A stretch of 56,325 nucleotides of DNA, from positions 1 through 56,325 of the IMG/VR virus record IMGVR_UViG_3300042868_007474; one strand, written 5' to 3'. A program made the translations under genes and the position numbers. Numbering within the stretch: the first letter of the stretch is position 1; every line of letters starts with the position of its first letter. Of this stretch, positions 18,477 through 48,967 are shown piece after piece. The stretch comes from a virus (Duplodnaviria > Caudoviricetes). The notes under the pieces are model-generated. The model had not been told where the DNA came from. It did not search any database and saw only the letters and a program-made list of their open reading frames with translations.

Positions 18477-18978
18477 ATTGGTTTGTGCATTGGTGAATAT
18501 GCATGGTTTCTGTCGATTGTCAAGCAGAACAATCACCCCGACTATTGATTGTCCGAAGGGGTCATTTCCTAGGCCGTGCGGCCACGCTCCGCTCGGGTCG
18601 TCAAATCGGGGCATTTTGTGGCGTTTTTCGAGCCCTCTGGAAATCGGTTCTGCGGGGGGCTTCTCTGAGCCTGTGGTTAAGCAAGCCCAAGGGCTTGCGA
18701 GGTCGTGGCGGGCATTCTAGAGGCCATTCTGGAGGTGCGTGTTTAATGCTCGGCAGTCCAAAAATTTATATGATTGAACGCTCATAAAAATCATATCCGT
18801 CATAAAGCCCTCGTTAAATGATTTGTAAAAAAATCGTAAAACTCCGCCACTTGGCACACTTCCGAGCAAATGCAGACCCGTGCCAAGTCCGAGTTTTTAC
18901 AATTCTTTGACGAAAATAAATCTGCATCTAAACTCAGATTTATCTCGTCTCGGAGCGGGGAAAGTCTACCTTCCTCAT

Positions 18979-19104
18979 ATGACCGCAACGCTCCTCGCCC
19001 TCGCCCTCGCTTACGCCCTCGCCCTCGTTTGGCTTCACCGCAAACTCCGCACCACTCCCGCCCTTACGGGTCTCCTCTCCGAAATCCGTGCCGAGAACCG
19101 CTAA
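18979..19104 (+). CDS. Small membrane peptide
   Basis: 41 aa with hydrophobic N-terminus MTATLLALALAYALALVW. Confidence 0.55.
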   Translation: MTATLLALALAYALALVWLHRKLRTTPALTGLLSEIRAENR

Positions 19105-19141
19105 CACTTTCCCAACCCAAACCCAACCCAACCCAACGCAT

Positions 19142-19324
19142 ATGTCCCCCGCCCTCCTCGCCTCCCTCGCCAACCTCGCCAACCTTGAGGCAAAGCACCC
19201 CAAGGTCGCCCTCGCCGTCCGAGTGGAAAACTCCCACCTCGCCCCCCGTGCCAACGCCTCCGAGGAGGTCGTCAAGGCTTGGGTCAAGTTCCTCACCCTC
19301 GAAATCCGCAACCTCGCCCGCTAA
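19142..19324 (+). CDS. Array protein, paralog of 23892..24074
   Basis: LEAKHPKVALAVRVENSHLAPRANA versus LAEKHPKEATAIRLRNHLLAPKANA. Confidence 0.75.
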   Translation: MSPALLASLANLANLEAKHPKVALAVRVENSHLAPRANASEEVVKAWVKFLTLEIRNLAR

Positions 19325-19380
19325 ACCGACCGCCCCCGCAAGGGGGCGACCCTCCCACCCTCCAAACCGACCTTTCCAAA

Positions 19381-19629
19381 ATGACCGCCTCCCAAATCAT
19401 CCCCGCTTGGACTTTCCTCGCCGACCTCTCGGACGGCGACACCCTCACCCTCCGAGGCGTTGCCGTCACCCTCTCCCCTGCGACCCGCCTCCCGCTCGCC
19501 CTCGCCCTCGCCCGCAACCTCGGACTCCGCAAGGGTGCGGTCGTCACCCGAGCCCTCCGCTCGGACGGCGACATGACCCGCTCCGCCCTCCGCACCGACC
19601 CGAGCAAGGTCAAGTTCAAGGGCGAGTGA
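19381..19629 (+). CDS. Array hypothetical protein
   Basis: 82 aa, C-ending codons. Confidence 0.65.
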   Translation: MTASQIIPAWTFLADLSDGDTLTLRGVAVTLSPATRLPLALALARNLGLRKGAVVTRALRSDGDMTRSALRTDPSKVKFKGE

Positions 19630-19907
19630 GCCCGAGCGGGCGACCGAGCGAGCCGAGGCGACCGACCTCGGCCTTCGGCTCTCCGCACCTAGCAAGCGGA
19701 GCGAGCCCCGTGCATAGGACTGTGCGTGGTGAACGCCCGTTCACGCCCACCCCCGCCGACCCGACCCGAGGCGAGGGCGTAGCCCGAGCCCGACCCGTGA
19801 CCCCGAAAAACCGACCCCCTGTTTTTCCAGACCACTCCCAGCCGACCCCCTGCATAGGATTGCAGGACGGTGAACGCCTGTTCACTACGCTCCTCCCGCT
19901 CGGACGG

Positions 19908-19996
19908 CTCTGGAAGCCCGCCCTCTGGCGACCCGTGGCTAACCTCTGGCAAGCCACGCAAGGGCTCTGGCGACCCTCTGGCGACCTCTGGCGACC
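19908..19996 (+). repeat. CTCTGG(CGACC) direct repeats
   Basis: Six copies at 19908, 19923, 19944, 19965, 19976, 19986. Confidence 0.7.
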
Positions 19997-20144
19997 TGTC
20001 CCTGCCTCACCCTCGGACGGCGTAAACGCCCCGCCCAGCGGGGCTTAAAACTATTTTGAAAATAAAACAAAAATGTCCTTGTGTGTTTCGGCGGTCTCTG
20101 ATTGTGTGTCGGTGTTCCCACTAACAACTAACAAAAATAAAAAT

Positions 20145-20444
20145 ATGACCACCACCGACCTCGCCACCCTTTCCGCCCGCAACCTCCTCGCCGATGCCTT
20201 CGGTGCGAACGGAGGCCATGTCGGCTACCTTGTGGACGAACTCAACCGCCTCGTCCGCAACGCCCCCATCGGGCAGGAGCGGGCGATTGTCGCCCGTGGC
20301 GTGGCGGGCATCCGCTACGACCGCTACGACCCCCTGCTGGGTCTCCGCTATAACGATGCCTTCTGGACGGCGGTGGACGACCTCTGCTGGATGGAGGAGG
20401 CCAACGCCGAGGTGGTCTCCACCTTCTACTCGGAGGAGGAGTAA
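20145..20444 (+). CDS. Array hypothetical protein
   Basis: MTTTDLATLS; own promoter upstream. Confidence 0.7.
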   Translation: MTTTDLATLSARNLLADAFGANGGHVGYLVDELNRLVRNAPIGQERAIVARGVAGIRYDRYDPLLGLRYNDAFWTAVDDLCWMEEANAEVVSTFYSEEE

Positions 20445-20618
20445 AACTCCGAGCCCGAGCCGAGAGGTTCGGGTTTCGTTTTGCTCCCGCCTAGCAAACG
20501 GAGCGACCCGAGCGGACGGCTGGTCGCTAGGCCGCACACACGCCGAAAGTTTTTTAAAATAGTTGTTGTAATTTTCGGGACGGGTGTCAGTCTCGGAGAT
20601 GCACCAACCGCAACACCC

Positions 20619-20852
20619 ATGACCTCCCTCGCCCTCGACTCCCTCCTCGCTGACCTCGCCAAGGCTCAGAACGCCGTGGAGAACGCCATGCACACCGCCA
20701 CGAAGTTGGAGCAAGCCGATTGGTGGATGGAGGGTGGCAAGATGGTAGTCGGTCGCCACGCCAAGGCCGCTCGCACCCGCCTTGCCAAGGCTCGCCGTGA
20801 GCGTGACCGCCTCACCCGCAGGGTGGACGACCTCAAGGCACGGATGGGCTGA
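20619..20852 (+). CDS. Array hypothetical protein
   Basis: MTSLALDS; promoter upstream, hairpins downstream. Confidence 0.7.
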   Translation: MTSLALDSLLADLAKAQNAVENAMHTATKLEQADWWMEGGKMVVGRHAKAARTRLAKARRERDRLTRRVDDLKARMG

Positions 20853-20993
20853 CCGCCCCCCGAGGGGGCTCATCCGAGAGGATGGGCTTTTTCGGCGACC
20901 CCGTTGCTAGGTAGCATGGTGACGAAAATAATTTAAAAATGTTCTTGTGCTTCGGGCGGGTTGTGCTACTGTGTCTTTGTTCCCACTACACCA

Positions 20994-21128
20994 ATGCTCG
21001 CCAAACACTACACCGCCCTCGTCAAGTTCAATGAAACCGCCTCGGTCATCCGCTCCGTCAAAGAGATGTTGAAGGCCGACAAAGCCCGCACCCGCAAGAT
21101 GTGGGCTGACCGCAAGGCGGGCAAGTAA
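20994..21128 (+). CDS. Array micro-protein (44 aa, not in ORF track)
   Basis: MLAKHYTALVKFNETASVIRSVKEMLKADKARTRKMWADRKAGK; own promoter. Confidence 0.65.
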   Translation: MLAKHYTALVKFNETASVIRSVKEMLKADKARTRKMWADRKAGK

Positions 21129-21225
21129 GCCCGCCCGACCTTCGTCACCCCGTCCGAAAATAATTGAAAATAAATCTTGTAATCCAAAAACATTCTGTCA
21201 CTCTGTAATAGTTCCCACTACACCA

Positions 21226-21393
21226 ATGACCCACCAAGAAACCGTCCGTCACCTCCGCCTCGCCCACGCCCGCCATATGGCGACCTTCGACCGCTATGCC
21301 AAAGCGGGCAACGCCTCCGAGGCAAAGTATTGGCTCGGGCGAGCCGCCGAGGCTCACCAGAAACTGCTCGACCTCGGAGAGGTGGCTATCTAA
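21226..21393 (+). CDS. Array micro-protein (55 aa, not in ORF track)
   Basis: MTHQETVRHLRLAHARH...; shares leader GTTCCCACTACACCA with 20994; hairpin at 21410-21425. Confidence 0.65.
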   Translation: MTHQETVRHLRLAHARHMATFDRYAKAGNASEAKYWLGRAAEAHQKLLDLGEVAI

Positions 21394-21517
21394 CGCCACC
21401 CGAGGCAACGCCCCCGAAAGGGGGCTTCGGCTTTGCCGTTTGCTAGGTGTGGGCTACGAAAGATTTCTGAAAATAGTTCTATCTTTTTTTGGAGGGGTGT
21501 GGTATAGTGTATGAGTA

Positions 21518-21766
21518 ATGAAAAACCTCATCTCCATCGCACCGCTCACCATCATCCGCAAGTCCGCCAGCGGACTCGCTGTCGAGGTCGTCACCGCTCA
21601 AGTCGAGGGCATGATGTGCCTTCGCCGAAACTTCGGCATCTGCGGGAAGTGGCTTCCCCTCTCGCAGGTGGTCGTAAAAGACCGCAAGGTGGTCGCCGTC
21701 TCGGGCTGGCTGGTCAAGGCCAAGAAACTCGACCTCCTGCCCGAGGGTGAGGTCGGGGCTTGGTAA
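21518..21766 (+). CDS. Array hypothetical protein
   Basis: 82 aa with WLPLSQV motif; ATG directly after TATAGT. Confidence 0.7.
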   Translation: MKNLISIAPLTIIRKSASGLAVEVVTAQVEGMMCLRRNFGICGKWLPLSQVVVKDRKVVAVSGWLVKAKKLDLLPEGEVGAW

Positions 21767-21905
21767 GCCACCGCCTCGGGGTCTCACGACCTCGGGGCTT
21801 TTTCCTGTCGGTTTTCTAGGCTAAGATATTTTAGAAAAAACAAAAATACTTCTCGACATTTCGTCCGACCTCGCCATTGTCATAGATGCACCAACCGCAA
21901 CACCA

Positions 21906-22097
21906 ATGAACAAGCCCAGCAAACTCCTCCTCACCAACGCCCCCCGAGCCCTCGCCCTTGAGGTCAAGATGGCAAAGGTTCGGGTCAAGCAACTCAAGGA
22001 ACGCATCAAACAAAGCAAGCGAGATGAAGCCCGAGCCAAGGTCGAACTCCTCGGGGCTGAGTCTGTCCTCGCAAAACTCCTCGCACGGGTTGCGTAA
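21906..22097 (+). CDS. Array hypothetical protein
   Basis: 63 aa, basic coiled coil. Confidence 0.65.
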   Translation: MNKPSKLLLTNAPRALALEVKMAKVRVKQLKERIKQSKRDEARAKVELLGAESVLAKLLARVA

Positions 22098-22229
22098 GCG
22101 ACAAGCCCTTGCCTCGGGGTCAGCCGACCTCGGGGCTTCGGCTTCGCCGTTTGCTAGGTCTTGGTATCGCAAAGAAAATAGAAAATAGTTCTTGTATTTT
22201 TCTTCGGCCTGTTCTAATGTATTGGAGTT

Positions 22230-22424
22230 ATGAAAAACACCACCACGCAGGAAGTCGTCACCGAAATGTCCCTCAAGGATGCCCAAGGCATCGCCAAGTT
22301 CTTGGCGGGGCGAGCCGAGGTCGAAAAGACCGAGGAAGCCCGCAACGCCGTCGCCCTCTGGGAGATGGAGGTCGCTCGGCTGTCGTCCGAACTTGACAAC
22401 CTTCGGAGCGGGCTGGCGGGCTAA
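22230..22424 (+). CDS. Array hypothetical protein
   Basis: 64 aa; own promoter and terminator. Confidence 0.65.
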   Translation: MKNTTTQEVVTEMSLKDAQGIAKFLAGRAEVEKTEEARNAVALWEMEVARLSSELDNLRSGLAG

Positions 22425-22554
22425 CGCCCCCCCGCCTCGGATGGAACAGCCCCTCACGGGGCTTTTTTGTAGCACAGACCTAGCAAAGATAATTGCGTGT
22501 TGGGTGAAAATATATCTCGACACGGGGCGACCATTGTGCAGGATAGTGGATGTT

Positions 22555-22824
22555 ATGACTACCACCGCCTTCGACCACATCATCCCCTTCAACTCCCGTA
22601 TGCTCGACCTCGCCCTCGCCCGTATGCGATATGACAGCGAGCCCACCGAGGCCAACCGAGCCCGCCGAACGGGTGCGGAGCAATCGGCCTTTGATGCCCT
22701 CCGTGTCGCCCGTCCGCACATCCACCCCGACACCTTCCTTGCCCTCCTCGCCCTCATCCCCGCCGTCACGGGGTCGGTCAATCCGAACGGCATCCGTGTC
22801 GTCCCCCGCCAGCGGACGGCGTGA
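22555..22824 (+). CDS. Array hypothetical protein
   Basis: MTTTAFDH, near-leaderless start. Confidence 0.65.
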   Translation: MTTTAFDHIIPFNSRMLDLALARMRYDSEPTEANRARRTGAEQSAFDALRVARPHIHPDTFLALLALIPAVTGSVNPNGIRVVPRQRTA

Positions 22825-22926
22825 GGGTCGGGGGTCGCCGAGACCGCTCGGCGGCTTCGCCGTTTGCTAGGCGGCGTAAACGCTCGCAGACGCTCATAAA
22901 AGTTTTCAGCGTGAGTCCTTTGCTAC

Positions 22927-22956
22927 ATTGTAGCATAAAAAACGGGTCTCCGTCAA
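22927..22956 (-). promoter_or_regulatory. Antisense sigma70-type promoter (one of eight)
   Basis: TTGACG-18-TACAAT with extended TG. Confidence 0.65.
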
Positions 22957-23061
22957 TACTTAATTTCATTTTTTATTTCAAAAATAAATCACAATTGTCT
23001 TGTGCTTCTCGGATAGTTCGCCATTGTAGTTCTTGTCACCCGACACCCAACACCAAAACAT

Positions 23062-23295
23062 ATGCACCCCGCCCCCCAGAACTGCACCGCCCCCGAACTG
23101 TTCCTCTACTCCGCCACTCGGACTTACCTCCGCTTGGAAGCCCGCACGGACGGGCGGATGTCGATGAGCAAGGCCGCTCGCCCCAACGCCCTCCTCCTCT
23201 TGGAGGTTCACGCAGGGGTCAAACTCCCCAAGCGTGTCAAGGCGACCGAACTGCTCGCCAAGTTTGAGGAAGCCTTCGGCAAGTATCTCCCGTAA
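23062..23295 (+). CDS. Array hypothetical protein
   Basis: 77 aa; own promoter and terminator. Confidence 0.7.
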   Translation: MHPAPQNCTAPELFLYSATRTYLRLEARTDGRMSMSKAARPNALLLLEVHAGVKLPKRVKATELLAKFEEAFGKYLP

Positions 23296-23392
23296 GGGAG
23301 GACGGCCAATGGTAACAGCCCCCTGTCGGGGGCTTTGTCATTTGTAAAAATCATTTTTACAATTTTTACAATTAGAGTGCCTACGAAACTAA

Positions 23393-23410
23393 ATGACGGG
23401 TATCGGTCAT
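23393..23410. promoter_or_regulatory. AYGAC-N8-GTCRT palindrome (type example)
   Basis: ATGAC-GGGTATCG-GTCAT; similar sites lie upstream of many array promoters. Confidence 0.7.
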
Positions 23411-23469
23411 AAACTTTTTTAAAAAAAGTGCTTGTGATTTTTCGAACCTTCGTCCATAGTGATGGAGTA

Positions 23470-23727
23470 ATGAATACCGAACCTTCTATGACCCCGAAAG
23501 AAATCATCACGGACTGCGAAAACAAGTGTCGCTTCCTCAACGGCCAGATTGCTGGCATCGACAAGGCTCTCCGCCTCTTGGCTAACGCTCTCTCGCCCGA
23601 AGGGCTGGCGATGGTCGCCTCTCTGGAAGCGACTCGCAAGACCCTTGACGACCAAGCGACCGCTCTCTCTGTCAAGCGACAGGACGCAGAAATCGCCCTT
23701 TACACGACCGATTTGAGCAAGGAGTAA
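23470..23727 (+). CDS. Array hypothetical protein
   Basis: MNTEPSMTPK, coiled coil. Confidence 0.65.
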   Translation: MNTEPSMTPKEIITDCENKCRFLNGQIAGIDKALRLLANALSPEGLAMVASLEATRKTLDDQATALSVKRQDAEIALYTTDLSKE

Positions 23728-23891
23728 GCAAGGTCGGGCGGGGCTAACGCCCTGCCCTTTTTTGCGACCCGTTTCCTAGGCGGAATTATTTCACTTTGAC
23801 GAAAGATTTTTCTTTCTTTTTTCCGACACCCGTGCTATTGTCCTCTTGTCGCCGTGAGCGACACAAAACCAAAACCAAACCAAACAAAACC

Positions 23892-24074
23892 ATGACCCCC
23901 GCCACCACCGCCATCGTCTCGCAGTTCAACGCCCTCGCCGAGAAGCACCCCAAGGAAGCGACCGCCATCCGCCTCCGCAACCACCTCCTCGCCCCCAAGG
24001 CGAACGCCGAGGAGGCCGTCCTCAAAGGCTTCTGGCTGATGATGGTCGCCGAACTCCGACAGGCGGTCAAGTAA
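23892..24074 (+). CDS. Array protein, paralog of 19142..19324
   Basis: See 19142. Confidence 0.75.
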   Translation: MTPATTAIVSQFNALAEKHPKEATAIRLRNHLLAPKANAEEAVLKGFWLMMVAELRQAVK

Positions 24075-24245
24075 GCCCCCACGGGTCAAGGCAAGGCTCG
24101 CCCCACGGGGCGGGCTTTTTTGTTGCCCGAGGTTCTCGACCTCGACCACCCCGTTTGCTAGGCCGCACGGGTAGCAAAAATAATTAAAATAGTTCTCGAC
24201 CTTTTTGGAAACATACCCCATAGTCATCTTATCGAAACAACCCTT

Positions 24246-24491
24246 ATGTCCTCCTCCTCCCTCTTCATCTCCCTCGGCGACCTGCTCGACCCCAACTGCC
24301 CCGTGGCAAAGGTCGCCCGAGAAAACGCCCGCCTCCACGCCGAGGAGGTCGCCCGAGTGACCGCCCTTGTCGCCGAGCGGGAAGCCTCCAAAGCCCGCTG
24401 GGCGGCGATGAGCAAGGAGGACAAGGAGGAAGCGATGCAGGATTGGGAATGGTCTATGATGCCCGAGGGCGAGGACTACCCCGAGGACTGA
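24246..24491 (+). CDS. Array hypothetical protein
   Basis: 81 aa with acidic C-terminus. Confidence 0.7.
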   Translation: MSSSSLFISLGDLLDPNCPVAKVARENARLHAEEVARVTALVAEREASKARWAAMSKEDKEEAMQDWEWSMMPEGEDYPED

Positions 24492-24632
24492 CCTCCTCGC
24501 CGAGCGGGAAGCCCGTAGTGAACGGGCGTTCACCGCCCTGCCGCCTACGAAACATAAAGACAGGTATCGCTCATAAAAAAAGTTAAAATAGTTCTCGCAA
24601 TTTTCTAAACGATGGTCATAGTCATAGATGTT

Positions 24633-24848
24633 ATGAACCTCATCCTCCTCACTACCTCCCTCCGCCACCCCGACCTGTCGTCTTACCGCCAGCCCGATGG
24701 CTCGACCCACTACCTCGCCGATGCTTACAGCACGGGCTGGTATCGAGCCCAAGGCGAGCAGTTGGAGGCGACTGTTAAGACCCTCCTCTCGGAGGTCGAA
24801 GCCAAGGACAAGGAAATCGAACGCCTCACCGCCCTCCTCGCCCGATAA
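24633..24848 (+). CDS. Array hypothetical protein
   Basis: MNLILLTTS; own promoter and terminator. Confidence 0.7.
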   Translation: MNLILLTTSLRHPDLSSYRQPDGSTHYLADAYSTGWYRAQGEQLEATVKTLLSEVEAKDKEIERLTALLAR

Positions 24849-25011
24849 GGGCGAAGGTCGGAACGCCCCCGAGGTCGGGGGCTTTTTGTTGCTCGGTTTG
24901 CTAGGTCTGCCTCCCGCAAAGATTTTAAAAATAGTTCTGGTATTTTCGGGCTGGGTGTGCTATTGTATCTTTGCAATCAGCAACCCAATCCAACCCAAAT
25001 CCAACGCCACT

Positions 25012-25287
25012 ATGTTCCCCCGCAATACCGACCCCACCCGTGAAGAAATGGTCGCCTTCCTTAAGGCAACCCCTCTGCATGACCATCGTGAGACCGCTGA
25101 CAGCATTGAGTTAGCCATCCACGCCTTCGCCACGGAAAACTACGATGGGCAGTTCTCCAACCTCTACATCGCCCTCTCCGCCTCGCCCGTCAGTTCTTAT
25201 GAGAACATTGACAGGGATTGGCTGGAAGCAAACGATGCGACCGCCTGTATGATGTTTGACGACCTTGAAACCGCCTTCGCTGGCTAA
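25012..25287 (+). CDS. Array hypothetical protein
   Basis: MFPRNTDPTREEM...YDGQFSNLYIALSASP. Confidence 0.7.
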   Translation: MFPRNTDPTREEMVAFLKATPLHDHRETADSIELAIHAFATENYDGQFSNLYIALSASPVSSYENIDRDWLEANDATACMMFDDLETAFAG

Positions 25288-25333
25288 CCCTCACGCCCCC
25301 CGCAAGGGGGGCAACCCCTCACCCTCCAAAAAA

Positions 25334-25447
25334 ATGTTCGACCCTCACCAAATGGATTACATAGTCGGGATGTTCTACCTCGGGCTTGCCGCCGCTGGCA
25401 TCTGCCTTGTTGGCTGGCTCTGCCTCCGCATCTTCGGCGACCTCTGA
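25334..25447 (+). CDS. Small membrane peptide
   Basis: 37 aa with one hydrophobic helix. Confidence 0.5.
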   Translation: MFDPHQMDYIVGMFYLGLAAAGICLVGWLCLRIFGDL

Positions 25448-25629
25448 CCGCCTCGGACGGGCTCGGGCTCGGGCGGTTGCTCGGGCTCGGGCTTTGCCTT
25501 GCGACCCAAAGCAACGGCGTTTCCCATACCTATGCTGTATGCTAGGTCTGGGTAGTGAACGGATGTTCAGTAGTAAGATTTTTAAAATAGTTCTTGTTTT
25601 TTTTCGTGGGTCGGGTATGGTGGTGGAGT

Positions 25630-26043
25630 ATGAAACACATCCCCGCCACCGACCTCGCCTCCGACACCTCCAACGCCCCCGCCCCCGCCCTCTGGGCTCT
25701 CGGGCGTGAGTTGTTCCCCCGCCCCGCCTCCGCCAAGTCCCACAAGGCCAAGGTCGAGGCCATCCTCGCCTCCCCCTCCGACCTCCGCCGTCTCGCCGCC
25801 GAGTCGGGCTGGAAGGTTCTCTCGGCTTTCGCCGATAAGGTCGCCAAGACCGCCAATTGGAACGACTATTGCGACCGCCACTCCACGCATTGGGGCTATA
25901 ACCGCAAGATGTTCTGGTCTGACAAGATGGTTTCCTGTGTCGAGCGGGCTCTCGCCTCGGTCAAGGGTTTCGAGCCCTCCGAGGTCGCCGAGTGGCAGTC
26001 CGAGTGCGACCATTGGGATGCCCTCCGCAAGGGCGAAATCTAA
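25630..26043 (+). CDS. Array hypothetical protein
   Basis: MKHIPATD, 137 aa. Confidence 0.7.
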   Translation: MKHIPATDLASDTSNAPAPALWALGRELFPRPASAKSHKAKVEAILASPSDLRRLAAESGWKVLSAFADKVAKTANWNDYCDRHSTHWGYNRKMFWSDKMVSCVERALASVKGFEPSEVAEWQSECDHWDALRKGEI

Positions 26044-26422
26044 TCCCCCCGCCACAAGGCAACCAGCCCCCGACAAGGGGGCTTTTTTGTGCCTCCGTTA
26101 TTTCAGCCCTCCGAGACGATGGCTATCGAGAAAGCCACGGGGGTCTGCTTGCCCTCTGGCTTGGCATCTGGCGGGCTTTGGCTACGGAGACGGGTCAATG
26201 GTCGGGCTTGGCTACGCAAGCCCTCTACGGGGCTTTAAATCGTGCGGAGATTGGACGGCCTTAACCTCCGCAAATCTGCGTAGATTGCACAGACCTAGCA
26301 AACGCACCGCCCGCTCCGCTCCGCTGGTTGCTAGGTGGCTGGTTCGCAAAAGATTTTAAAAATAGTTCTCGCAATTTTCGCAATCCCTGTCATAGTCTTT
26401 TTATTGTTCTTATAAAAACCAC

Positions 26423-26528
26423 GGAGACGGGACGGGTGTCCTGCTGGAAAGCCCGCAAGGGCGGGGGGCTTAACAGCCCTTCGGGTGAAATCCCAAGGTA
26501 GAGGGTTCGACTCCCTCCGTCTCCTCCA
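26423..26528 (+). ncRNA. Non-canonical tRNA-like RNA in its own promoter unit
   Basis: Acceptor GGAGACG/CGTCTCC + U + CCA; T-arm GAGGG-TTCGACT-CCCTC; aberrant multi-hairpin middle. Confidence 0.7.
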
Positions 26529-26590
26529 TTTTAAAATAATTAAAAATAGTTCTCGACTTTTTTCCGACCCGTGTCATAGTCATCTATGTT

Positions 26591-26725
26591 ATGAAAAACA
26601 AAGTTACCTTCGCTCAAGTCCTCCTCTCCGTCCGCAAGGTCGGGGGTCGCCCCTCGGTCGCCTTCCTCCCCAAGAAGGCCAAGGCCAAGGCCGACCGCCA
26701 CTCTTGGAAGAAGGAGCAGGAGTAA
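26591..26725 (+). CDS. Basic micro-protein (44 aa), paralog of 34590..34721
   Basis: MKNKVTFAQVLLSVRKVGGRPSVAFLPKKAKAKADRHSWKKEQE. Confidence 0.7.
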   Translation: MKNKVTFAQVLLSVRKVGGRPSVAFLPKKAKAKADRHSWKKEQE

Positions 26726-26867
26726 GGCACACGCCCCCGAGGTCGGGGGCTTCTTGCTACCCAAGACCTACGGAACTTAATGGCAGATGCCAATCATAAA
26801 ATAATTAAAATAGTTCTCGACTTATTCCTGCCCCGTGGCATAGTCATAGATGCACCAACCAAAACAT

Positions 26868-27071
26868 ATGAACCGCACCGAAAAAATCGAATCCATCCTC
26901 ACCCACATCTCTTACTCCGTCTCACAGGCGAAGGCATCGAAGAAGGAGGGTCTCCGCAACGCCGAGCGGTCTTACCTTCACGACATCTCCGACCTCGCCC
27001 TTGAACTGTCCCGCCTCACGGCAATCGAGTGGAGCAAGGCAAGCAACGCCGAGACTGTCACCAAGGAGTGA
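26868..27071 (+). CDS. Array hypothetical protein
   Basis: MNRTEKIES. Confidence 0.65.
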   Translation: MNRTEKIESILTHISYSVSQAKASKKEGLRNAERSYLHDISDLALELSRLTAIEWSKASNAETVTKE

Positions 27072-27220
27072 GGTCTCTCGGCAACACGCCCCCGAGAGGG
27101 GGCTTGTCCGTAGCACGGGCCTAGCAAACATAACGACAGATACCGCTCATAAAAAAGATAAAATAGTTATTGCATTTTCGGCGACCCGTGTCATTCTTCT
27201 CTATGCACCCAGCAACACCA

Positions 27221-27547
27221 ATGAAAACCAAAGCCAAAACCAAACTGTTCGAATTCCACCAAAACAACTCGGGAGGCCACTTCTGGCTGACGGAGGACAT
27301 CGGCCACAAGACCTTTATCGAGGCCAAGAGCCCCAAGGAGGCCGACAAGATTGCCGAGGGCAAGGGCATCTACTTCCACGGCATCGGCGACTGTGAGTGC
27401 TGTGGGGCTCGCTTCTCCTCCTCGACCAATTGGGGTGGCAAGCCCTTCGAAGGCGACCCCTTTGAGTTCGACAAGTGGGACAGGTCTGGCTCGGTTCACA
27501 TCGTCCACTACAAGGACGGCACTCGGAAGTCCCAGACCAAGGAGTGA
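27221..27547 (+). CDS. Phage protein with QNNSGG...GIYF.G..DCECCG motif (putative Zn-binding)
   Basis: Pattern recalled from phage early-region proteins, not searched. Confidence 0.7.
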   Translation: MKTKAKTKLFEFHQNNSGGHFWLTEDIGHKTFIEAKSPKEADKIAEGKGIYFHGIGDCECCGARFSSSTNWGGKPFEGDPFEFDKWDRSGSVHIVHYKDGTRKSQTKE

Positions 27548-27663
27548 ACAACAGCCCCCTCGGTGGGGGCTTTCTTGTGACCCGTTTGCTAGGTCGCATG
27601 GTCGCCGAAAATATTTAAAATAGTTGTTGCATTTTCCGACCCCTGTGCTATTGTGATGGAGTT

Positions 27664-39196: not shown

Positions 39197-39238
39197 AAAT
39201 CTTCTTGCAAAAAACCAAAACCCATACATACTACTTAA

Positions 39239-39695: not shown

Positions 39696-39719
39696 GCCCC
39701 ATTGACATAAGACAATTAT

Positions 39720-39923
39720 ATGGATAAGTATATTAAAACGGCTTACGATGCGGCACTCTCGGCGGGGACTCCACTTCAAAAAGAAGCGTGTGCAAAGTTT
39801 AAGGAAGTTATGCTTGAGGCAGGTGGCCCAAAAGAGTTCCAAGAATGGTCTGACGAAAAGGTTATGGACTTCGCAATAGACCTTATACTAAAAACCAAGA
39901 TTAGACAGCACATAATTGATTGA
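39720..39923 (+). CDS. Array protein, variant of the GYP.E...W.D motif
   Basis: KEVMLEAGGPKEFQEWSDEKVMDFA. Confidence 0.65.
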   Translation: MDKYIKTAYDAALSAGTPLQKEACAKFKEVMLEAGGPKEFQEWSDEKVMDFAIDLILKTKIRQHIID

Positions 39924-40009
39924 TAGGTATTTATATGACGGCATTCGGTCATTAAAATAGTTTAAGATAAACTTGCATTTGGTTGCAGGGTGTGCATACT
40001 GTATCTCGT

Positions 40010-40375
40010 ATGAAACACACCACCAAGAAAGCCATCCTCATTAACGCCAAGACCAACACCGTCAGTTTCGTGGAGGTCGGTGAATACACCGACATTTACA
40101 AGCACTGCGGTTATCAGACCTTTACCTGCGTGGGTCTCCCGCAGGAGAAGGAAACCCTCTATGTCGATGACGAGGGTCTTATCAATGGCACGGACTACGG
40201 CTTTACCATCGAGGGCTACGCCGACCCCCTTATGGGCAACGGACTCATTCTCGGGACTCGTTCCAACGGGGACAGCCGAGACACCGACCTTACGGTTGAG
40301 GAAGTTTGTAAAATGGTTCGCATTCTTCGCCCAACGGCTTTCGGCTTCATTTCGATGAAGCCCACGGCTGGATAA
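40010..40375 (+). CDS. DUF3846-like protein
   Basis: KAILI...LYVDDEGL...PLMGNGLILG...GDSRD pattern. Confidence 0.65.
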   Translation: MKHTTKKAILINAKTNTVSFVEVGEYTDIYKHCGYQTFTCVGLPQEKETLYVDDEGLINGTDYGFTIEGYADPLMGNGLILGTRSNGDSRDTDLTVEEVCKMVRILRPTAFGFISMKPTAG

Positions 40376-40761: not shown

Positions 40762-40799
40762 CGGCTCTGCCGCTTGTTAGGTATCTTGCAGTAACTTAA

Positions 40800-41135
40800 A
40801 CAACTGAAAGACCCCCCACACGAAACACCGTGTGGAGGGTCAGTTGTTATGTATGAACCAACGCTAAATGAAGGCTAACAGGGATAGTTCCAGCGACAAC
40901 AATAACATTCCGTGCCTTGCAACCAACAACAACAACGCTTGGGGCTCTTACGATGCTCCCCACTTCCCTGTTAGCACAAATTAATCGGAGATTTTTCGAT
41001 AGTCCTTTTCACCCTGCTCTGGTTAGACCAATCGAGGGTGTCGGCTCACCGCTGGTAGTCGGTGGCAGTCCTTACGGATACTGCAAGGGGGCGGGCCTCA
41101 CGGCTTGTCGCATCTCCAAAGTGTTTCAATCAACG
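40800..41135 (-). ncRNA. Candidate multi-domain structured ncRNA
   Basis: Promoter TTGCAT-16-CATACT (41171-41144); stems GGAGAT/ATCTCC, GCTAACAGGGA/TCCCTGTTAGC and a long terminal hairpin; no credible ORF. Confidence 0.55.
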
Positions 41136-41177
41136 ATACATACAGTATGCATAACCTTTCGGATAATGCAAGAAGAA

Positions 41178-41372
41178 AGTTGAATGTCTTGTGCCTTTGC
41201 AGATGGGGGAAGTTCTCCGTATTCCCACCCGCTTTGTCCGCACAAGCATCTTGGGTTTGTAGTCGGAGCGTTCCGCTCCCGCTGTCTCTTCCCCCGCTTT
41301 GGACACGGGGTGATAGCCATTGGCAACCAGCGAGGTTTCTACAAACTTGCACAAAGTGATTTCAATTAACAA
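41178..41372 (-). ncRNA. Candidate ~190-nt structured ncRNA
   Basis: Promoter TTGCAT-16-CATACT (41407-41380); closing stem TTGAA..TTGTGC/GCACAA..TTCAA; inner GTTTGTAG/CTACAAAC multibranch. Confidence 0.55.
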
Positions 41373-41504
41373 TAAATACAGTATGCATACCTCCGAAAGA
41401 AATGCAAGCACCATTTTAACATTCATTTGCTAGGTCGCTATATGATTGAAAATAGTTGAATAAACATCTTGAAAAAAATCTAAAACCTGTAATACTGTAT
41501 CTCT

Positions 41505-41693
41505 ATGACACTCGCTCAATACCAGCAAGGAATGAAACGACTCGCCGAAATCCGCAACAGCCTTACCACGGCTCGGCAGGAACTCGCCTCCGAGAAGAAC
41601 TACGACCTGCGTGAAATGCATCAAGCGGTTATCAATGCCCTTATGGCAGAAATGCAGGAAACCGAAACCTTAATGAACGGACTTCAAAAATAA
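41505..41693 (+). CDS. Array hypothetical protein
   Basis: 62 aa. Confidence 0.7.
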   Translation: MTLAQYQQGMKRLAEIRNSLTTARQELASEKNYDLREMHQAVINALMAEMQETETLMNGLQK

Positions 41694-41757
41694 TTCATTT
41701 TCATCTTTACATTAAATCAGATTTGTGCATACTGTATCTTCTAACCCAAACAACCAA

Positions 41758-42359: not shown

Positions 42360-42614
42360 GGTTTAGCCCCTCACGGGGCTTTTCCTTTGGTTTGGTTGTT
42401 AGGTATCTAACAGACCCCAAAGTTGCCCCCACGGCGACCCATTTGGAATATTGTAGCACATTCGCAAGCCGTTGTAAAGCAAAAAGATAAGAGTTTATTC
42501 TTTGATTGTTTTACGAAAAGATAACTTTGTGCTTGCGGAAACTTAAATCGTATGCATACTTGTAAGAGTCCAATCAAGGACAACCAACCAAAACTAAACC
42601 AAACCAAAATACAT

Positions 42615-43490
42615 ATGACCACGAACCTCACCACCACCACCGCCTCGGAAGCCATTGAGCGTCAGACTGAAAAGTTTGACTACACGGTTTCCCAAGTCCC
42701 GTTCCACCTCCCGAACGGCTCGCAGACCCGTTTTCTCGCTAATGTGCGGGATGACAACGGCGAAGTCCTCGGGTGCGTCTCCGACCGCTACGAAGTCCTC
42801 CAAAACTCCGATATGCTCGGGGCTTCCGAAGACCTCTTCAAGGCCGAGGGCTTCTCTAACTTCAAGCGTAAGACCGTTTGCACGAACGGCGGGGCTCGCA
42901 TCCGAGCCATTTATGACTTCCCCGACCACGGCTTCAAACTGTCGAACGGGAACGACCTCACCTTCCGCTTGAAGGTTCAGAACTCCTTTGACGGCTCGCT
43001 CCGTGCCTCGTTCCAAGTCGGTCTCGTTCGCCTCGTTTGCACGAACGGCCTTGCCCTCCCCGTTGCGGCTGTTGGTATGTCCCGCAAGCACACCCAGCAC
43101 CTCGACCCGAACGGTCTCCGTGAGGCGTTCGCCCGCTCCATTAACGCCTTCAAGGAGTCCGCTCCCCTCTTCAATCGGATGATTGAGACCCGCTTGACGC
43201 AGGAGGAGGGCAACAGCATCCTGCTGAACTTCGAAAAGTCCAAGGTTATGAGCGAGCGGATGCGTGAGGGCATACAAGCGGTTTGGGAGCGTCCGACTTA
43301 CGCCGAGGACAGCACCCGCAACCTGTTCAACCTCTACAACGCCACGACCCAGCACCTTACCCATTCGGTTGAGGGCAAGCGGTTCGAACTTGCCGAGCGT
43401 GTGAACACGGGAGTCCTCAACTCCATCTCCAAGGCGGTGAAGCGAAACAACCTCGCCTCGCTGATGGTTGCCAACCTCGGGGATAACTAA
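42615..43490 (+). CDS. DUF932/DUF945 family protein (TIGR03299-like)
   Basis: VLGCVSDRYEVLQN, NGGAR, NSFDGS, RLVCTNG, FNLYNATTQ. Confidence 0.85.
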   Translation: MTTNLTTTTASEAIERQTEKFDYTVSQVPFHLPNGSQTRFLANVRDDNGEVLGCVSDRYEVLQNSDMLGASEDLFKAEGFSNFKRKTVCTNGGARIRAIYDFPDHGFKLSNGNDLTFRLKVQNSFDGSLRASFQVGLVRLVCTNGLALPVAAVGMSRKHTQHLDPNGLREAFARSINAFKESAPLFNRMIETRLTQEEGNSILLNFEKSKVMSERMREGIQAVWERPTYAEDSTRNLFNLYNATTQHLTHSVEGKRFELAERVNTGVLNSISKAVKRNNLASLMVANLGDN

Positions 43491-43586
43491 TCCCCCGAGC
43501 GGGCGGGTCGAACAGGGTGGGGGCTAACGCCCCCGCCCTTTCTTTGTTTGCAAGCATTGACAAACCTGCTATGCTGTCCCCCTCAT

Positions 43587-43922
43587 ATGGTATCCAAAAA
43601 AGATTATTTTAAAGTTGACCTTTTCCCCGATGGTATGCATTGTCCAAAATGCAGGGGAGTGCATTTCCACCCCAAGGCAACGGTTTTACCAAACCTAGTA
43701 TCCGTAGTGCCAGACCCAAAGGGTAAGGACGGGAAAGTTAGCCTGTGGGTGGCTCGGTCTGAGTGCCTAACAACAGGGTGCAACGGCTTTGTGGATTGGA
43801 CATTCCATCCCGACTACTGCAACGGAGACCGCCTTGGAAACCCTTATAGAGCCATTGTAGAGTGGGGTTCTAACCCACTTGGGCTGGAAGCGTTCAAGGA
43901 CTTCCCTCGGAGCAATAGTTAA
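43587..43922 (+). CDS. Zn-ribbon-like protein
   Basis: CPKC...CLTTGC. Confidence 0.6.
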   Translation: MVSKKDYFKVDLFPDGMHCPKCRGVHFHPKATVLPNLVSVVPDPKGKDGKVSLWVARSECLTTGCNGFVDWTFHPDYCNGDRLGNPYRAIVEWGSNPLGLEAFKDFPRSNS

Positions 43923-43977
43923 GTTTTTTAGATTTGATGCTTGTATTTCTCAGAGGTTCGTGCATACTGTATCTACT

Positions 43978-44145
43978 ATGAAACACGAAATGGAATACAT
44001 CGCAACCATCCAAGTCCTCTCTGGCTCTATGGCTGGACAGATGCTTGAAATCGAAACGCTGGACAAGTGGGCTATTGGCTCTCACCACCACATCGCCGAG
44101 CAGACCTTTGTCGTCCTCGGCCTTGAAGAAAATCCGCTGGAATGA
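43978..44145 (+). CDS. Array micro-protein
   Basis: MKHEMEY; TGCATACTGTAT promoter. Confidence 0.65.
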   Translation: MKHEMEYIATIQVLSGSMAGQMLEIETLDKWAIGSHHHIAEQTFVVLGLEENPLE

Positions 44146-44203
44146 AAATAAGACTTGTAATCTAAACCAAAATTTGCATACTGTATCTTCTCCAACCAAT
44201 ACC

Positions 44204-44449
44204 ATGAAAAACACTAACTACAAAATCCAGAACGACACCCTTGATAAGATTAAGCCCGCCCTTGATAAGGCAAAGATTAAGTGGGTGCTTGTCTTTGACG
44301 AGGATGTGCTTGACCGCCTTGACGGCGACCCCCGCCTTGCAAAACTCACGCCCGAAATCATGGAGTCCATCAAGGACGACACCGTTGATGCCCTTATGGA
44401 AGCGTGGGCTGATTGCATCGACTCTGCCATTGACAACAACATCCGATAA
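44204..44449 (+). CDS. Array acidic protein (similar to 45464 and 48349)
   Basis: MESIKDDTVDAL versus MMEIKEAVLDAL. Confidence 0.7.
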   Translation: MKNTNYKIQNDTLDKIKPALDKAKIKWVLVFDEDVLDRLDGDPRLAKLTPEIMESIKDDTVDALMEAWADCIDSAIDNNIR

Positions 44450-47171: not shown

Positions 47172-47345
47172 TTACTTGCAATCGTATTTTTCTGCCCGCT
47201 CTTTGGCGATTTCCTCAATCTGATACCAGATTTTAGCCATTGTATCGTCATCATACTTGGCCTTGTCGTATTGACCTTGACCCCACGACCCCTTTGCCCA
47301 ATCAAGGGCGTGTAAGGCCGTGTTTCTGATTTCCTCGTTGGTCAT
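47172..47345 (-). CDS. Hypothetical protein
   Basis: MTNEEIRN. Confidence 0.6.
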   Translation of the reverse strand: MTNEEIRNTALHALDWAKGSWGQGQYDKAKYDDDTMAKIWYQIEEIAKERAEKYDCK

Positions 47346-47349
47346 CGGT

Positions 47350-47571
47350 TTAGTATTCGTGGGTTTCGTTGCCCTCGGCATCCTGCGAGTAGCAGGTGAA
47401 GTCAGAGGAGTCAGCAATCATCTTGCCGAACTTGACATTCTCCACGAACGCATTAAGATACTTCTCTTGGGCTTCCTCGAAAGAGTTAGCCACGATGCCT
47501 CGGGATTGGATGGTGATGGTTTCGTTGAAGAAGTAAGTCTTCTTCGTGTTGGTGGTGTTTTCGTTGGTCAT
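47350..47571 (-). CDS. Small protein, same pattern as 45724
   Basis: KTYFFNETITIQSRGIVANSFEEA; own promoter. Confidence 0.65.
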   Translation of the reverse strand: MTNENTTNTKKTYFFNETITIQSRGIVANSFEEAQEKYLNAFVENVKFGKMIADSSDFTCYSQDAEGNETHEY

Positions 47572-47632
47572 GGTGTTTGGGTGAGAGATACAGTATGTAT
47601 GGTTTTAGATTTTGTGCAAGACATTTGTCTGA

Positions 47633-47938
47633 TTATTTCAGATAAATCGTCTTCACTCGTTCGTAGTTTCCATTGATGCTGGTAGTAATGTCGAAAATCC
47701 TGTTATCAATAGAGCGGACTTCGAACTCTCCGCTTGCCATCTGTTTAAGGGCTTTGATAATCTTGCCTTCGTGTTCGTCAATTTCAAAGTATTCGCCCTT
47801 GCAACCGCAACGGCAGTTGTTGCCCTTGCCGATGTAGAGGTTATCCACCTTGTCAAGGGTGATGACAATCTCACCATCCCCATCAGACGAGGTGTGCTTG
47901 ATTTTGTATTCAGTTCCGAGGTTCATAGTGTTGGTCAT
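47633..47938 (-). CDS. Phage protein with YIGK..CRCGCKGEY motif
   Basis: Own TGCATACTGTAT promoter. Confidence 0.7.
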   Translation of the reverse strand: MTNTMNLGTEYKIKHTSSDGDGEIVITLDKVDNLYIGKGNNCRCGCKGEYFEIDEHEGKIIKALKQMASGEFEVRSIDNRIFDITTSINGNYERVKTIYLK

Positions 47939-47984
47939 AGAAATACAGTATGCACAGATTTTATAAAACAACAAGCATTATTTC

Positions 47985-48233
47985 TTACTTTCTTTGTCCA
48001 TTGGAGTCAAAGAGAACTTCAAAGGAAAGGTCTTCTACTTCCTTAATAGCCTCGGCAAGGGCAATGCGAGCCTCTTCGGCTCGCTTGCCAGAGCGTTCAA
48101 ACTCATAGTCAAAGGAAAGGGAAGGGTTGGTGAGTTGGAACATCACGCCGTGCTGTGCCTCACGAAATTGAGTCAATTTCCAGATAAGGTTTTTGCTGGC
48201 CTTGGCGAGTTCGGTTGCTTTATTGTTTTTCAT
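47985..48233 (-). CDS. Hypothetical protein
   Basis: MKNNKATE; own TGCATACTGTAT promoter. Confidence 0.65.
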   Translation of the reverse strand: MKNNKATELAKASKNLIWKLTQFREAQHGVMFQLTNPSLSFDYEFERSGKRAEEARIALAEAIKEVEDLSFEVLFDSNGQRK

Positions 48234-48348
48234 AGAGATACAGTATGCACGGACTTGCACTTTTTTCAAGATAAAAGATTTAATATTTTGACGGCAGATG
48301 TGCTTGACATTTCTTGTAAAACCTGCACAATACACCGTAAGCAATACT

Positions 48349-48591
48349 ATGGACAAAAAACAAACTCAAAAAGAAGCGGTCAAGCAAATTAAAAAAATCT
48401 GTAAAGAAACGGGGCTGGGGTGCTTCCTACTAACGGATGACATGACCTCGCACATACAGACCGAAAATGGGACGGCAATTTCAGAATCCCAGCGTGAAAA
48501 ACTGAAGGAGCGACTTATTGATTCTTTTAATGATATGTATTCTGACTATCTTGACGCACTTTCGCTTGACTTAGAGACAGAAGAGGAGTAG
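48349..48591 (+). CDS. Hypothetical acidic protein
   Basis: MDKKQTQK. Confidence 0.65.
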   Translation: MDKKQTQKEAVKQIKKICKETGLGCFLLTDDMTSHIQTENGTAISESQREKLKERLIDSFNDMYSDYLDALSLDLETEEE

Positions 48592-48603
48592 ACTGTATAT
48601 CGT

Positions 48604-48879
48604 ATGAAAAACAACTACTCCATCGAACAGTTCAACGCAGACCTTGAAAGCGGTGCATACACCCAACTGGGTATGTATCCCAAGTATTTTATCACTTCAG
48701 ATGGTGGCTGTCTGTCGTTTAAGTCGGCGTTGGAAAACGCCGAACTTATTCGAAATGAAATTAAGGACGGAGATTTTATGGGTTGGCGTGTTGTGGCTTG
48801 CGATATTAATTGGGAGTCGTTCCTTTATTGCGACCACTCCAATAAGCAAATTGAGTCTGCTTACGACCCCGTTGAGTAA
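48604..48879 (+). CDS. Phage protein with YP.YFITSDGG...W.VVA.DINWE..LYCDH...IESAY motif
   Basis: Pattern recalled from phage early-region proteins, not searched. Confidence 0.75.
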   Translation: MKNNYSIEQFNADLESGAYTQLGMYPKYFITSDGGCLSFKSALENAELIRNEIKDGDFMGWRVVACDINWESFLYCDHSNKQIESAYDPVE

Positions 48880-48967
48880 ACTTAAGAAGTATGCAATATT
48901 CGACTTGCATACTTCAAGTTGGTTGTTAGGTTCTTTATATAGACCCCCACGGGGGAGGGGGTGCAAA

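Follow-up and report, generated by a model that had tools for sequence, protein, structure and literature searches.

The stretch of DNA described here, IMG/VR virus record IMGVR_UViG_3300042868_007474, is a whole 56,325-bp contig of a tailed phage and is referred to below as the window. Between positions 18900 and 48930 it carries an array of about 80 small open reading frames (ORFs), 63 promoter sites and three RNA units, read mostly from the plus strand. The array fills 53% of the window, so that the initial annotation of this DNA was right in giving it more than half, though the contig is without about 22 kb seen in its nearest relative. That annotation, made from the letters alone, had also proposed that one unit plan (G/C-rich hairpin, TAGG-core motif, optional palindrome, A-rich tract, -35 box, -10 box and ORF) recurs in the same order throughout the block. 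Direct reading of 18.6-51 kb bore this out.

ORFs were called with a codon model. The resulting unit table holds 82 of them, two being doubtful overlaps, which agrees with the roughly 80 micro-genes first counted. The small ORFs span from about 20.0 to 48.3 kb; they are 37-291 amino acids (aa) long with a median of 79, do not exceed 100 aa in 70 cases out of 82, and together bring the coding fraction of the array to 67%. Their autonomy, claimed for all of them at the outset, holds in part: 61 of the 82 listed ORFs have a promoter of their own and 44 a terminator-like hairpin, and only 33 have both. Fully autonomous units belong for the most part to the first half, which is GC-rich (19-34 kb, 52-60% GC); many units of the second half are equipped with a promoter only. 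Over 28 kb there is about one promoter per 450 bp. Four micro-genes lie on the minus strand (47172-48283), and three of these also have an array-type promoter (47633-47588, 47988-47943 and 48283-48238).

The promoters were described with a 46-nt matrix learned by expectation-maximisation on the upstream regions of 68 called ORFs. A scan of the whole window gave 65 sites of at least 13 bits (58 on the plus and 7 on the minus strand), of which 63 fall in 20,065-48,283; 30 first-order Markov genomes served as the control and gave 0.9 ± 1.2 sites, with a maximum of 4. Because the matrix had been trained on the array itself, three checks independent of it were run. The window contains 57 direct-repeat families, in the largest of which a promoter module of 29-71 nt is repeated 5-18 times; with one mismatch allowed, GCATACTGTAT occurs 19 times against 0.28 expected and AAAATARWYNTYG 25 times against 3.9 expected. 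The shared promoter appears to be of the sigma70 type: TTG is preceded by an A-rich tract and separated by some 17 nt from CATAGT or CATACT. It comes in two flavours: the first (class I), AAAATAGTTCT(T/C)G followed by CATAGT/TAnTGT, is dominant in the first half (19-34 kb), and the second (class II), AAAATAAACTTGCA followed by TGTGCATACTGTAT, in the second half, where the 25.2-bit site at 39959-40004 on the plus strand (AAGATAAACTTGCA ... TGTGCATACTGTAT) is an example.

One unit of the first half illustrates the plan. It has a 35-nt upstream module at 24544-24578 (plus strand), CCTACGAAAC...GACAGGTATCGCTCATAAAA, which combines an inverted TAGG core with GAC-N8-GTC; this CCTACGRAAC... variant of the junction motif is present in 8 copies against 0.3 expected. 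A class-I promoter of 31.5 bits follows at 24581-24626 (AAAATAGTTCTCG ... CATAGT, plus strand), its -10 box ending 10 nt before an ATG, and then a 71-aa micro-gene without a family match (24633-24848, plus strand). Downstream lies a predicted intrinsic terminator, GCCCCCGAGGTCGGGGGC followed by a T run (24865-24882, plus strand), whose hairpin is found again at 26733-26750. The TAGG box of the next unit, TTGCTAGG at 24898-24905 (plus strand), follows the hairpin at about 15-20 nt and stands 32 nt ahead of the -35 TTG that comes next.

The single elements of this plan are enriched as the initial annotation had expected, promoter, junction motif, palindrome and hairpins all lying above their controls. 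Terminator-like hairpins number 52 in 18.9-38.9 kb against 25.9 ± 5.8 in the control, and the strong ones are on the plus strand. Exact copies of TTGCTAGG (21) are all located within 19,688-41,434, and with up to one mismatch there are 75 of them against 39.1 ± 5.8. The palindrome TGAAC-N4-GTTCA is found 7 times in array spacers against 0.04 expected: two adjacent copies start at 38730 and 38748 (38730-38761), and the others are at 19730, 19871, 24519, 25556 and 31642. ORFs that are unrelated to one another are flanked by leaders, -10 stretches and hairpins of identical sequence.

In 41 of 60 promoter-ORF pairs the ATG is placed no more than 11 nt after the -10 hexamer, so that the predicted leader is 0-5 nt long. 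The leaders of the remaining 19 pairs extend 19-54 nt from the -10 box; Shine-Dalgarno-like 4-mers are present in 0/19 of them, and their composition is 84% A+C and 5% G. The same leader module may stand before unrelated ORFs, as does GATGCACCAACCGCAACACC ahead of 20619 and 21906. For most units the prediction is either a leaderless start or a C+A-rich leader free of Shine-Dalgarno sequences, an arrangement that we report as new. In several units (24622-24636, 26583-26594, 32508-32519 and similar) an ATG located 5 nt after the -10 box opens a mini-ORF of 2-7 codons, the TGA of which overlaps the main ATG (ATGTTATGA, ATGCACCAACCGCAACACCAATGA); this could be a leaderless start coupled to re-initiation.

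A search with the primase gave 19 IMG/VR loci, and five records (G001-G005, G003 and G004 being the same phage) were taken in full for comparison with the window. The nearest relative is G001, 80.5 kb long with a primase 92% identical at the amino acid level; G005, of 43 kb, has a primase of 75-76% identity. In blastn against G001 the left flank (4.5-18.5 kb) is collinear at 72-79% identity and the right flank (46.3-55.2 kb) at 65-93%, and between the flanks the matches are patchy and their order is scrambled. After removal of double-used loci, the gene adjacencies kept in G001 amount to 10/10 on the left, 11/13 on the right and 7/28 in the array. The longest run of array genes that keeps the order of G001 comprises 17 of 29; random orders give 8.2 and at most 13. 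At the protein level 31 of the 64 genes of 18.9-46 kb have a match in G001; by tblastn, 39 of 72 array genes are matched there and 5-12 of the 72 in G002-G005.

Where homology exists, it is cut to the size of the ORFs. Exactly one ORF is covered by 25 of the 27 high-scoring segment pairs (HSPs) between the array and G001. An ORF border is no more than 25 nt away from 33 of the 54 HSP ends, whereas random placement yields 7.1 ± 2.5 such ends. HSPs do cross the spacers where neighbours are kept (40976-41735 and 42584-43934); the breaks elsewhere are therefore real and not merely the outcome of fast spacer divergence. Together with the lost adjacencies, these ends speak for the modular, exchangeable block that had been proposed; of the outcomes named beforehand as contrary to it (fixed synteny, indel breakpoints unrelated to unit borders, and intergenic motifs no commoner than in controls), none was seen.

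The window matrix finds 33 sites in G001 and at most 2 in each of G002-G005. G001 shares the grammar of the window but differs in the details: a terminator, GGGTAGG(T/C), then TGCGTAAAAATCGGCAAAGATTTTTCTGGT or TTAATTGACCGAAC..., -10 boxes such as TAGTGT, and a leader of GGAGTCGAAAGACACC followed by a C+A-rich run. G005 has, instead of an array, a compact operon measuring a few kb, in which the same core genes follow one another with overlapping stops and starts. The array is therefore an expansion in the clade of the window.

Three events were resolved to single-base precision. In a comparison of G001 with the metagenome contig L079 (about 85% identity), G001 shows a 212-nt insertion of one ORF, a homologue of window ORF 37459-37683. 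The insertion is bordered by the upstream stop codon and by the AAATAA/CTTGCC -35 tract, and both G001 and L079 keep a promoter ahead of the gene downstream. The other two events come from four public runs aligned to 20,000-39,999, one of which (X8) is an RNA library available as contigs, in which DNA may be present and from which we make no claim on expression. In this run 34 of 50 pieces are at least 95% identical to the window, and two contigs that are 95-99% like the window switch position within it. The first follows the window to 36313 and then continues as an exact copy of 44193-44222; the switch is at TGCATACTGTATCTTCTC (36296-36313, plus strand), a -10 and start region of 18 nt that is identical to 44175-44192. 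In the second, 43929-43958 (with 1 mismatch) precedes 37057, and the switch is at CGTGCATACTGTATCTACTATGA (37057-37079, plus strand), 23 nt identical to 43959-43981 that extend over -10 box, start region and start codon. All three base-placed events, one indel and two junctions, are inside the repeated promoter motif. The two X8 switches fit cassette recombination and do not prove ongoing exchange. Joints at which a contig goes back along the window were also seen in runs X6, X7 and X8; they could come from excised one-cassette mini-circles or equally from a different gene order in relatives.

The whole pattern might also be produced by an ordinary early region in which the signals serve expression only, related phages differ through illegitimate recombination, horizontal uptake and the fast divergence of non-essential genes, and the cassettes do not recombine. 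Accessory early regions are variable in many phages, and ends of homology at ORF borders are expected from selection on the ORFs alone. At the identity of the closest full relative, about 77% at the DNA level, most breakpoints are not placeable to the base, so that the base-level cases are the three just described. We nevertheless regard this explanation as unlikely: all three of these events fall within the repeated promoter motif, identical leaders, -10 stretches and hairpins surround unrelated ORFs, spacers are alignable where the neighbours are kept, and G005, a relative with a plain operon, has no such expansion.

As to the machinery of exchange, the initial annotation had seen no recombinase other than a RecE/RecT pair, and this holds. 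To the right of the array the minus strand encodes a RecT-family annealing protein (52461-53351) and its partner, a PD-(D/E)XK exonuclease of the DUF3799 family (51554-52504). Neither tyrosine (PF00589) nor serine (PF00239) recombinases were found in any of five records (window, G001, G002, G004 and G005), the same profiles being positive in 14/14 and 12/14 control genomes, respectively, and no recombinase family is among the Pfam matches of 72 + 28 + 30 ORFs. The absence of both families along with the presence of RecT and the exonuclease argues against an integron-like mechanism and for homologous exchange, with RecT as the candidate agent of cassette recombination.

An integron-like platform would use the TAGG box, or its inverted pairs, as sites of site-specific recombination. 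Two such pairs, CCTAGCAA-N26-TTGCTAGG, are present (20490-20531 and 26294-26335), and the layout of small exchangeable units with a repeated junction element does resemble a cassette array. Integrons depend on the tyrosine recombinase IntI and hold promoterless cassettes that are expressed from a common promoter. Here the recombinase profiles are negative in the window and in four relatives, most ORFs have promoters of their own, and the placed events are in the -10 and -35 regions of promoters, not in TAGG; we therefore consider this explanation extremely improbable.

The closest known parallel is formed by the promoter-stem-loop (PeSL) elements of T4-type phages, which join a strong sigma70-like promoter, an AT-rich tract and a G/C-rich stem-loop in a motif with about 100 bp of conservation, cluster in variable regions before ORFans, and coincide with indels and replacements for which recombination between the motifs has been proposed (Arbiol et al. 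2010, PMC2839356; Comeau et al. 2014, PMC4122927). About 52 PeSLs were described in a phage of about 275 ORFs (PMC2839356); they end in a Shine-Dalgarno sequence, and mini-circles have been demonstrated for them (PMC2839356, PMC4122927). The array likewise has a composite motif of promoter, AT-rich tract and stem-loop, its motifs are concentrated in a variable region before ORFans, and the indel and the junctions are bounded by cassettes, in three cases only. It differs in that the phage, with its lambda-type portal and terminase and its P22-like coat, is not of the T4 kind, the promoters are much denser (63 sites in 28 kb), the units are by prediction leaderless or Shine-Dalgarno-free, the stem-loop always stands before the promoter with the TAGG box at a fixed place between them, and excised mini-circles are known for PeSLs only. 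The array thus works like a PeSL system and is not a member of it by descent.

Other early regions offer partial likenesses. The host-takeover modules of SPO1 and the pre-early region of T5 comprise about 10-12 kb with about a dozen promoters and strong ribosome-binding sites. Common to them and to the array are dense small early genes, many strong host-type promoters and a location at one genome end, whereas gene-by-gene shuffling at regulatory repeats is not among their described features. In conjugative plasmids, small counter-defence genes including ArdA are enriched in the leading region, which is expressed first (Samuel et al. 2024, PMC11541004). The array, as a candidate first-expressed region, also contains a small counter-defence gene of the ArdA type; the element, the mode of entry and the promoters are different, and the link consists of ArdA and a few families of the DUF type.

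Taken together, it seems probable to us that the block is a PeSL-like, hyperplastic early region that is shuffled by homologous recombination between its own regulatory cassettes. It would be built from self-contained expression units, each with a strong promoter of the primary-sigma type that is presumably used early by the host RNA polymerase, and with a small ORF translated leaderless or from a G-poor, C+A-rich leader lacking a Shine-Dalgarno sequence; in the first half a putative intrinsic terminator usually follows. Since every unit has signals of its own, ORFs may be gained, lost or moved without polar effects. The terminator-TAGG-promoter cassettes, which measure about 100 bp and have identical 18-23-nt stretches in common, would be the sites of homologous recombination, most likely carried out by the phage RecT/exonuclease pair. 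ArdA, and perhaps a Lar-like protein, would point to early counter-defence, and the TAGG core would act as the DNA-level signal of the cassette, tolerated almost nowhere else in the clade.

Several points weigh against this interpretation, beginning with the small number of base-level cases, the limited identity of the closest full relative and the selection on ORFs already mentioned. Units with both promoter and terminator are the minority. The X8 junctions are single contigs from one RNA library and may reflect the normal gene order of a relative or a reverse-transcription artefact; many other joints in the public runs have sides of 22-45 nt, which show the sharing of promoter modules only. 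The promoters, the terminators, the early timing and the leaderless starts are predictions from sequence. The part given to RecT is guessed from the presence of the gene, and the missing 22 kb could contain a recombinase; G001 covers this part, and neither the tyrosine nor the serine recombinase family is found there. The counter-defence role, finally, is supported by about 2-4 of the approximately 80 genes.

The TAGG core has a distribution of its own. Measured to the -35 TTG, it stands in the window at one of three ranges of distance, 32-34 nt (13 promoters), 42-47 nt (9) and 55-56 nt (2); the inverted core, CCTAC or CCTAGC, is placed 46-48 nt from the -35 TTG at 7 promoters, and 10 promoters of the window have an inverted core altogether. 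In G001 the box is GGTAGG, 47 copies of which are located about 19-20 nt after a terminator hairpin and 33-34 nt before the -35. As it comes after the terminator and before the -35, the box lies in DNA that is expected in neither flanking transcript. Within the array nearly all copies are intergenic (TAGG 35/37, CCTA 20/23). Outside it the tetramer has been almost purged: the rest of the window holds 9 TAGG against 97 expected and 3 CCTA against 105, and the 80.5 kb of G001 hold 63 against 287 and 2 against 341, respectively. The observed/expected ratio is 0.05-0.14 in all five loci of the window clade and 0.22-0.97 in all 16 loci of the sister clade, the primases of which are 72-76% identical. 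The placement of the TAGG core at fixed distances and its purge outside the array, confined to this clade, are reported here as new. A 4-mer purged in both orientations, and only in the clade that uses the box, suggests a reader of very short specificity acting on DNA.

Two kinds of reader were considered. A DNA-binding regulator might use the TAGG box as its operator, either as an activator site in helical register or as a stoperator-like roadblock, and so switch 40-50 promoters; TAGG would then mark cassette borders only as a part of the promoter. Such a role suits the distance classes, which are about 11 nt apart, the 33-34 nt kept in G001 despite a different intervening sequence, the position between terminator and promoter in DNA expected to be untranscribed, and the nearly single orientation in G001 (63 TAGG to 2 CCTA). 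Cluster A mycobacteriophages, which are temperate, have dozens of asymmetric intergenic stoperators in one orientation and a cognate repressor; the conserved core there is 13 nt, compared with 4-5 nt here, and the window has 23 inverted copies. Less easily reconciled with a regulator are the purge of a 4-mer from all coding sequence in both orientations, which needs a specificity of 4-5 bp that is unusual for a transcription factor, the difference between the flanks of the core (TTGC-TAGG in the window, GGG-TAGG in G001) and the 10 window promoters with an inverted core. Neither a repressor nor an integrase was recognised among the Pfam and PHROG matches, in which small helix-turn-helix ORFans may be missed. 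On balance we think a regulator of this kind rather unlikely.

The box might instead be a strand-specific nick or cleavage site of a phage or host nuclease, feeding RecT-dependent exchange and purged where breaks harm genes. Localised, strand-specific nicks have a precedent: phage tf has 14 of them, all on the top strand, with a 9-nt consensus found on that strand alone, and the nick consensus of phiKMV-like phages is CGACxxxxxCCTA/CTCCGG (PMC3517423). As in the nick systems of T5, phiKMV-like phages and tf, G001 has a short word on one strand at a few dozen places, and the apparent specificity of 4-5 nt, the near-total purge and the strand bias would all suit a nuclease. The putative array sites differ from those systems in their fixed distance to the promoter and in the 4-5-nt core. 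A gene for an HNH endonuclease is kept in the window, G001 and L079, and a 41% homologue occurs in G004, which is not purged; this endonuclease was tried as the TAGG reader, and the candidate was rejected for want of a clean correlation of presence and absence. A promoter element would account better for the constant spacing to the -35, and the window core stands in both orientations; a nick site appears very unlikely to us. Tentatively, and with more doubt than confidence, we put forward a broader possibility: TAGG may be a dedicated signal of 4-5 nt read by a clade-specific factor, be it a nickase/nuclease or a roadblock/switch, and together with the leaderless units it may form a recombinase-free gene-capture platform that inflated an operon of a few kb to 30 kb.

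The proteins encoded by the array are for the most part orphans. Among 72 of them, 68 have no Pfam family match, and the other four belong to ArdA, DUF932, DUF3846 and DUF7296. The ArdA-like antirestriction protein (106 aa, 36335-36655, plus strand) matches PF07275 with 59.2 bits and an E value of 9.4e-16, above the curated cut-off of 27, over profile positions 66-149 of 155 only. The DUF932 protein (291 aa, 42615-43490, plus strand) is the product of the largest array gene and is kept in all relatives examined; the DUF3846 protein has 121 aa (40010-40375, plus strand), and the DUF7296 protein 114 aa when read from an ATG 5 nt after the -10 box (27203-27547, plus strand). PHROGs added a few families for the array, and these without function. 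A PHROG scan of 28 further ORFs, 20 outside the array and 8 in it, gave HNH endonucleases and a weak Lar-like match for one of the 28. A library of host-takeover or anti-defence genes, as the block had been called, is thus inferred from very few genes. DUF932 as a mark of leading regions was not confirmed, since the family is not mentioned in the main text of PMC11541004.

Paralogues at distant slots, which the initial annotation had held to be recurrent, were limited at an E value of 1e-3 to two pairs. In the first, a 60-aa ORF (19142-19324, plus strand) is 42% identical to 23892-24074; in the second, a conserved 175-aa protein (31807-32334, plus strand), present in G001-G005, is 57% identical to the product of 38159-38674 (plus strand). 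The AlphaFold model of the 175-aa protein has a pLDDT of 81.6. Foldseek against the PDB gave nothing at E ≤0.001 and the Atlas no usable match, and a kinship of fold was dropped, as the best VIA-align Z scores of 6.3-5.0 (small beta-barrel, WYL and Sm-like) are below the level of a shared fold. Searches of viral contigs with the 175-aa protein and of metagenome contigs with a 137-aa protein found no relative.

As had been proposed, units may carry RNAs in place of proteins: three promoters are followed by an RNA without an ORF. In the first unit (26355-26528, plus strand) a promoter of 27.2 bits precedes a tRNA-like RNA of 106 nt (26423-26528), which has a 7-bp acceptor stem, a T arm, a UCCA end and a long irregular middle. 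ARAGORN makes no call for it, the tmRNA model matches its ends only and weakly (23.7 bits against a gathering score of 47), and blastn found no copy in G001. RNA unit A (41185-41421, minus strand) has its promoter at 41421-41376, ahead of a structured RNA (41185-41375, about 170 nt). Nine phage contigs (including L159-L166) conserve this RNA, which belongs to no Rfam family and shows compensatory changes at 10 of 26 predicted pairs; in G005 its place is between the genes for portal and terminase, outside any array. RNA unit B (40790-41185, minus strand) consists of a promoter at 41185-41140 and non-coding DNA, of which 200 nt match G001 at 88% identity. At the gathering threshold Rfam recognised in the window only the 10 tRNAs described below; at E up to 1 there were three weak matches, of which the tmRNA-end match alone was kept, as a description.

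Some further signals are found in the spacers. A backward promoter of consensus sigma70 appearance (TTGACG-N18-TGcTACAAT) occupies 22927-22956 on the minus strand within a long AT-rich spacer, and similar ones are at 31148-31177, about 31700-31728, 33403-33431, about 38021-38049 and about 42450-42478 (minus strand), with weaker ones at 28376 and 29586. Their pattern, TTGACG/TTTACA-N17-18-TGcTACAAT, is near the sigma70 consensus and was not found in G001-G005; they are located in AT-rich spacers before the conserved genes 23062, 31299, 31807, 33512, 38159 and 42615 and would yield antisense or divergent transcripts. At least five direct copies of CTCTGGCGACC-like words lie in non-coding DNA at 19900-20000, near that end of the array which faces the primase gene, and also at 26130-26230; they resemble iterons and perhaps belong to an origin of replication.

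The remaining parts of the window identify the phage. The left 18.6 kb (1-18.6 kb, minus strand) hold a lambda-type head and packaging module together with the primase/helicase: major head protein (4594-5541), S49 protease (7477-8442), lambda-family portal (8448-10148), gpA-type large terminase (11557-13380), small terminase (13603-14370) and primase/helicase (15540-17573), the coat being P22-like. The right border of the array is a cluster of ten tRNA genes (48968-50699, minus strand), split by the HNH endonuclease gene (49063-49437, plus strand); beyond it, besides the RecT pair, are a DUF669 protein and a lytic transglycosylase. The genome is incomplete: CheckV estimates a completeness of 70%, the first bases of the contig map to position 22,333 of G001 and the last to its end. 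Megablast of 18900-43800 against 50,697 phage records gave no match, and the terminase had only matches of ≤25% identity among phage records. The window sequence recurs in public lake-water and freshwater metagenome runs, and the phage is best described as a lytic-looking, lambda-headed freshwater phage.

A 32-kb all-phage contig (L078, the same as C68 of G006), with a primase 73% identical to that of the window, has been binned in a metagenome-assembled genome (MAG) of Candidatus Aquidulcis (Chloroflexota, Limnocylindria). The host is possibly an uncultured freshwater member of the Chloroflexota, which we take as a lead only because binning is weak evidence. The same MAG bears on the TGAAC-N4-GTTCA palindrome, which was considered as a LexA box. 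Such sites number only 3 in it, and they are grouped in a single 130-nt cluster (contig C25, 7384-7511) of GTGAAC...GTTCACAGTGTAA repeats; this does not look like an SOS regulon, and the LexA idea was therefore dropped. The palindromes of the window and of the MAG suggest a shared type of operator of some mobile element.

The window also lacks entirely 7 of the 16 4-nt palindromes (ACGT, AGCT, CCGG, CGCG, GATC, GCGC and GTAC), each expected about 220 times per strand. In G002 ten are missing and CTAG occurs once, G004 is without GATC only, and GATC is missing from 20 of 21 loci among the window, its relatives G001-G005 and L001-L019 examined. This looks like an extreme, lineage-specific avoidance of restriction sites.

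If the interpretation given above is true, PeSL-like shuffling is not peculiar to T4-type phages but has arisen convergently, and the shuffling of cassettes keeps a fast-evolving library of small early genes, of which the array is an extreme case. With some 75 uncharacterised small proteins and three RNAs, each provided with a ready-made predicted expression signal, it is a source of candidates for roles in host takeover or counter-defence. That TAGG is purged almost completely outside the cassettes gives a sharp, testable handle on a sequence-reading activity, and the predicted leaderless or Shine-Dalgarno-free design of the units would inform on translation initiation in the host.

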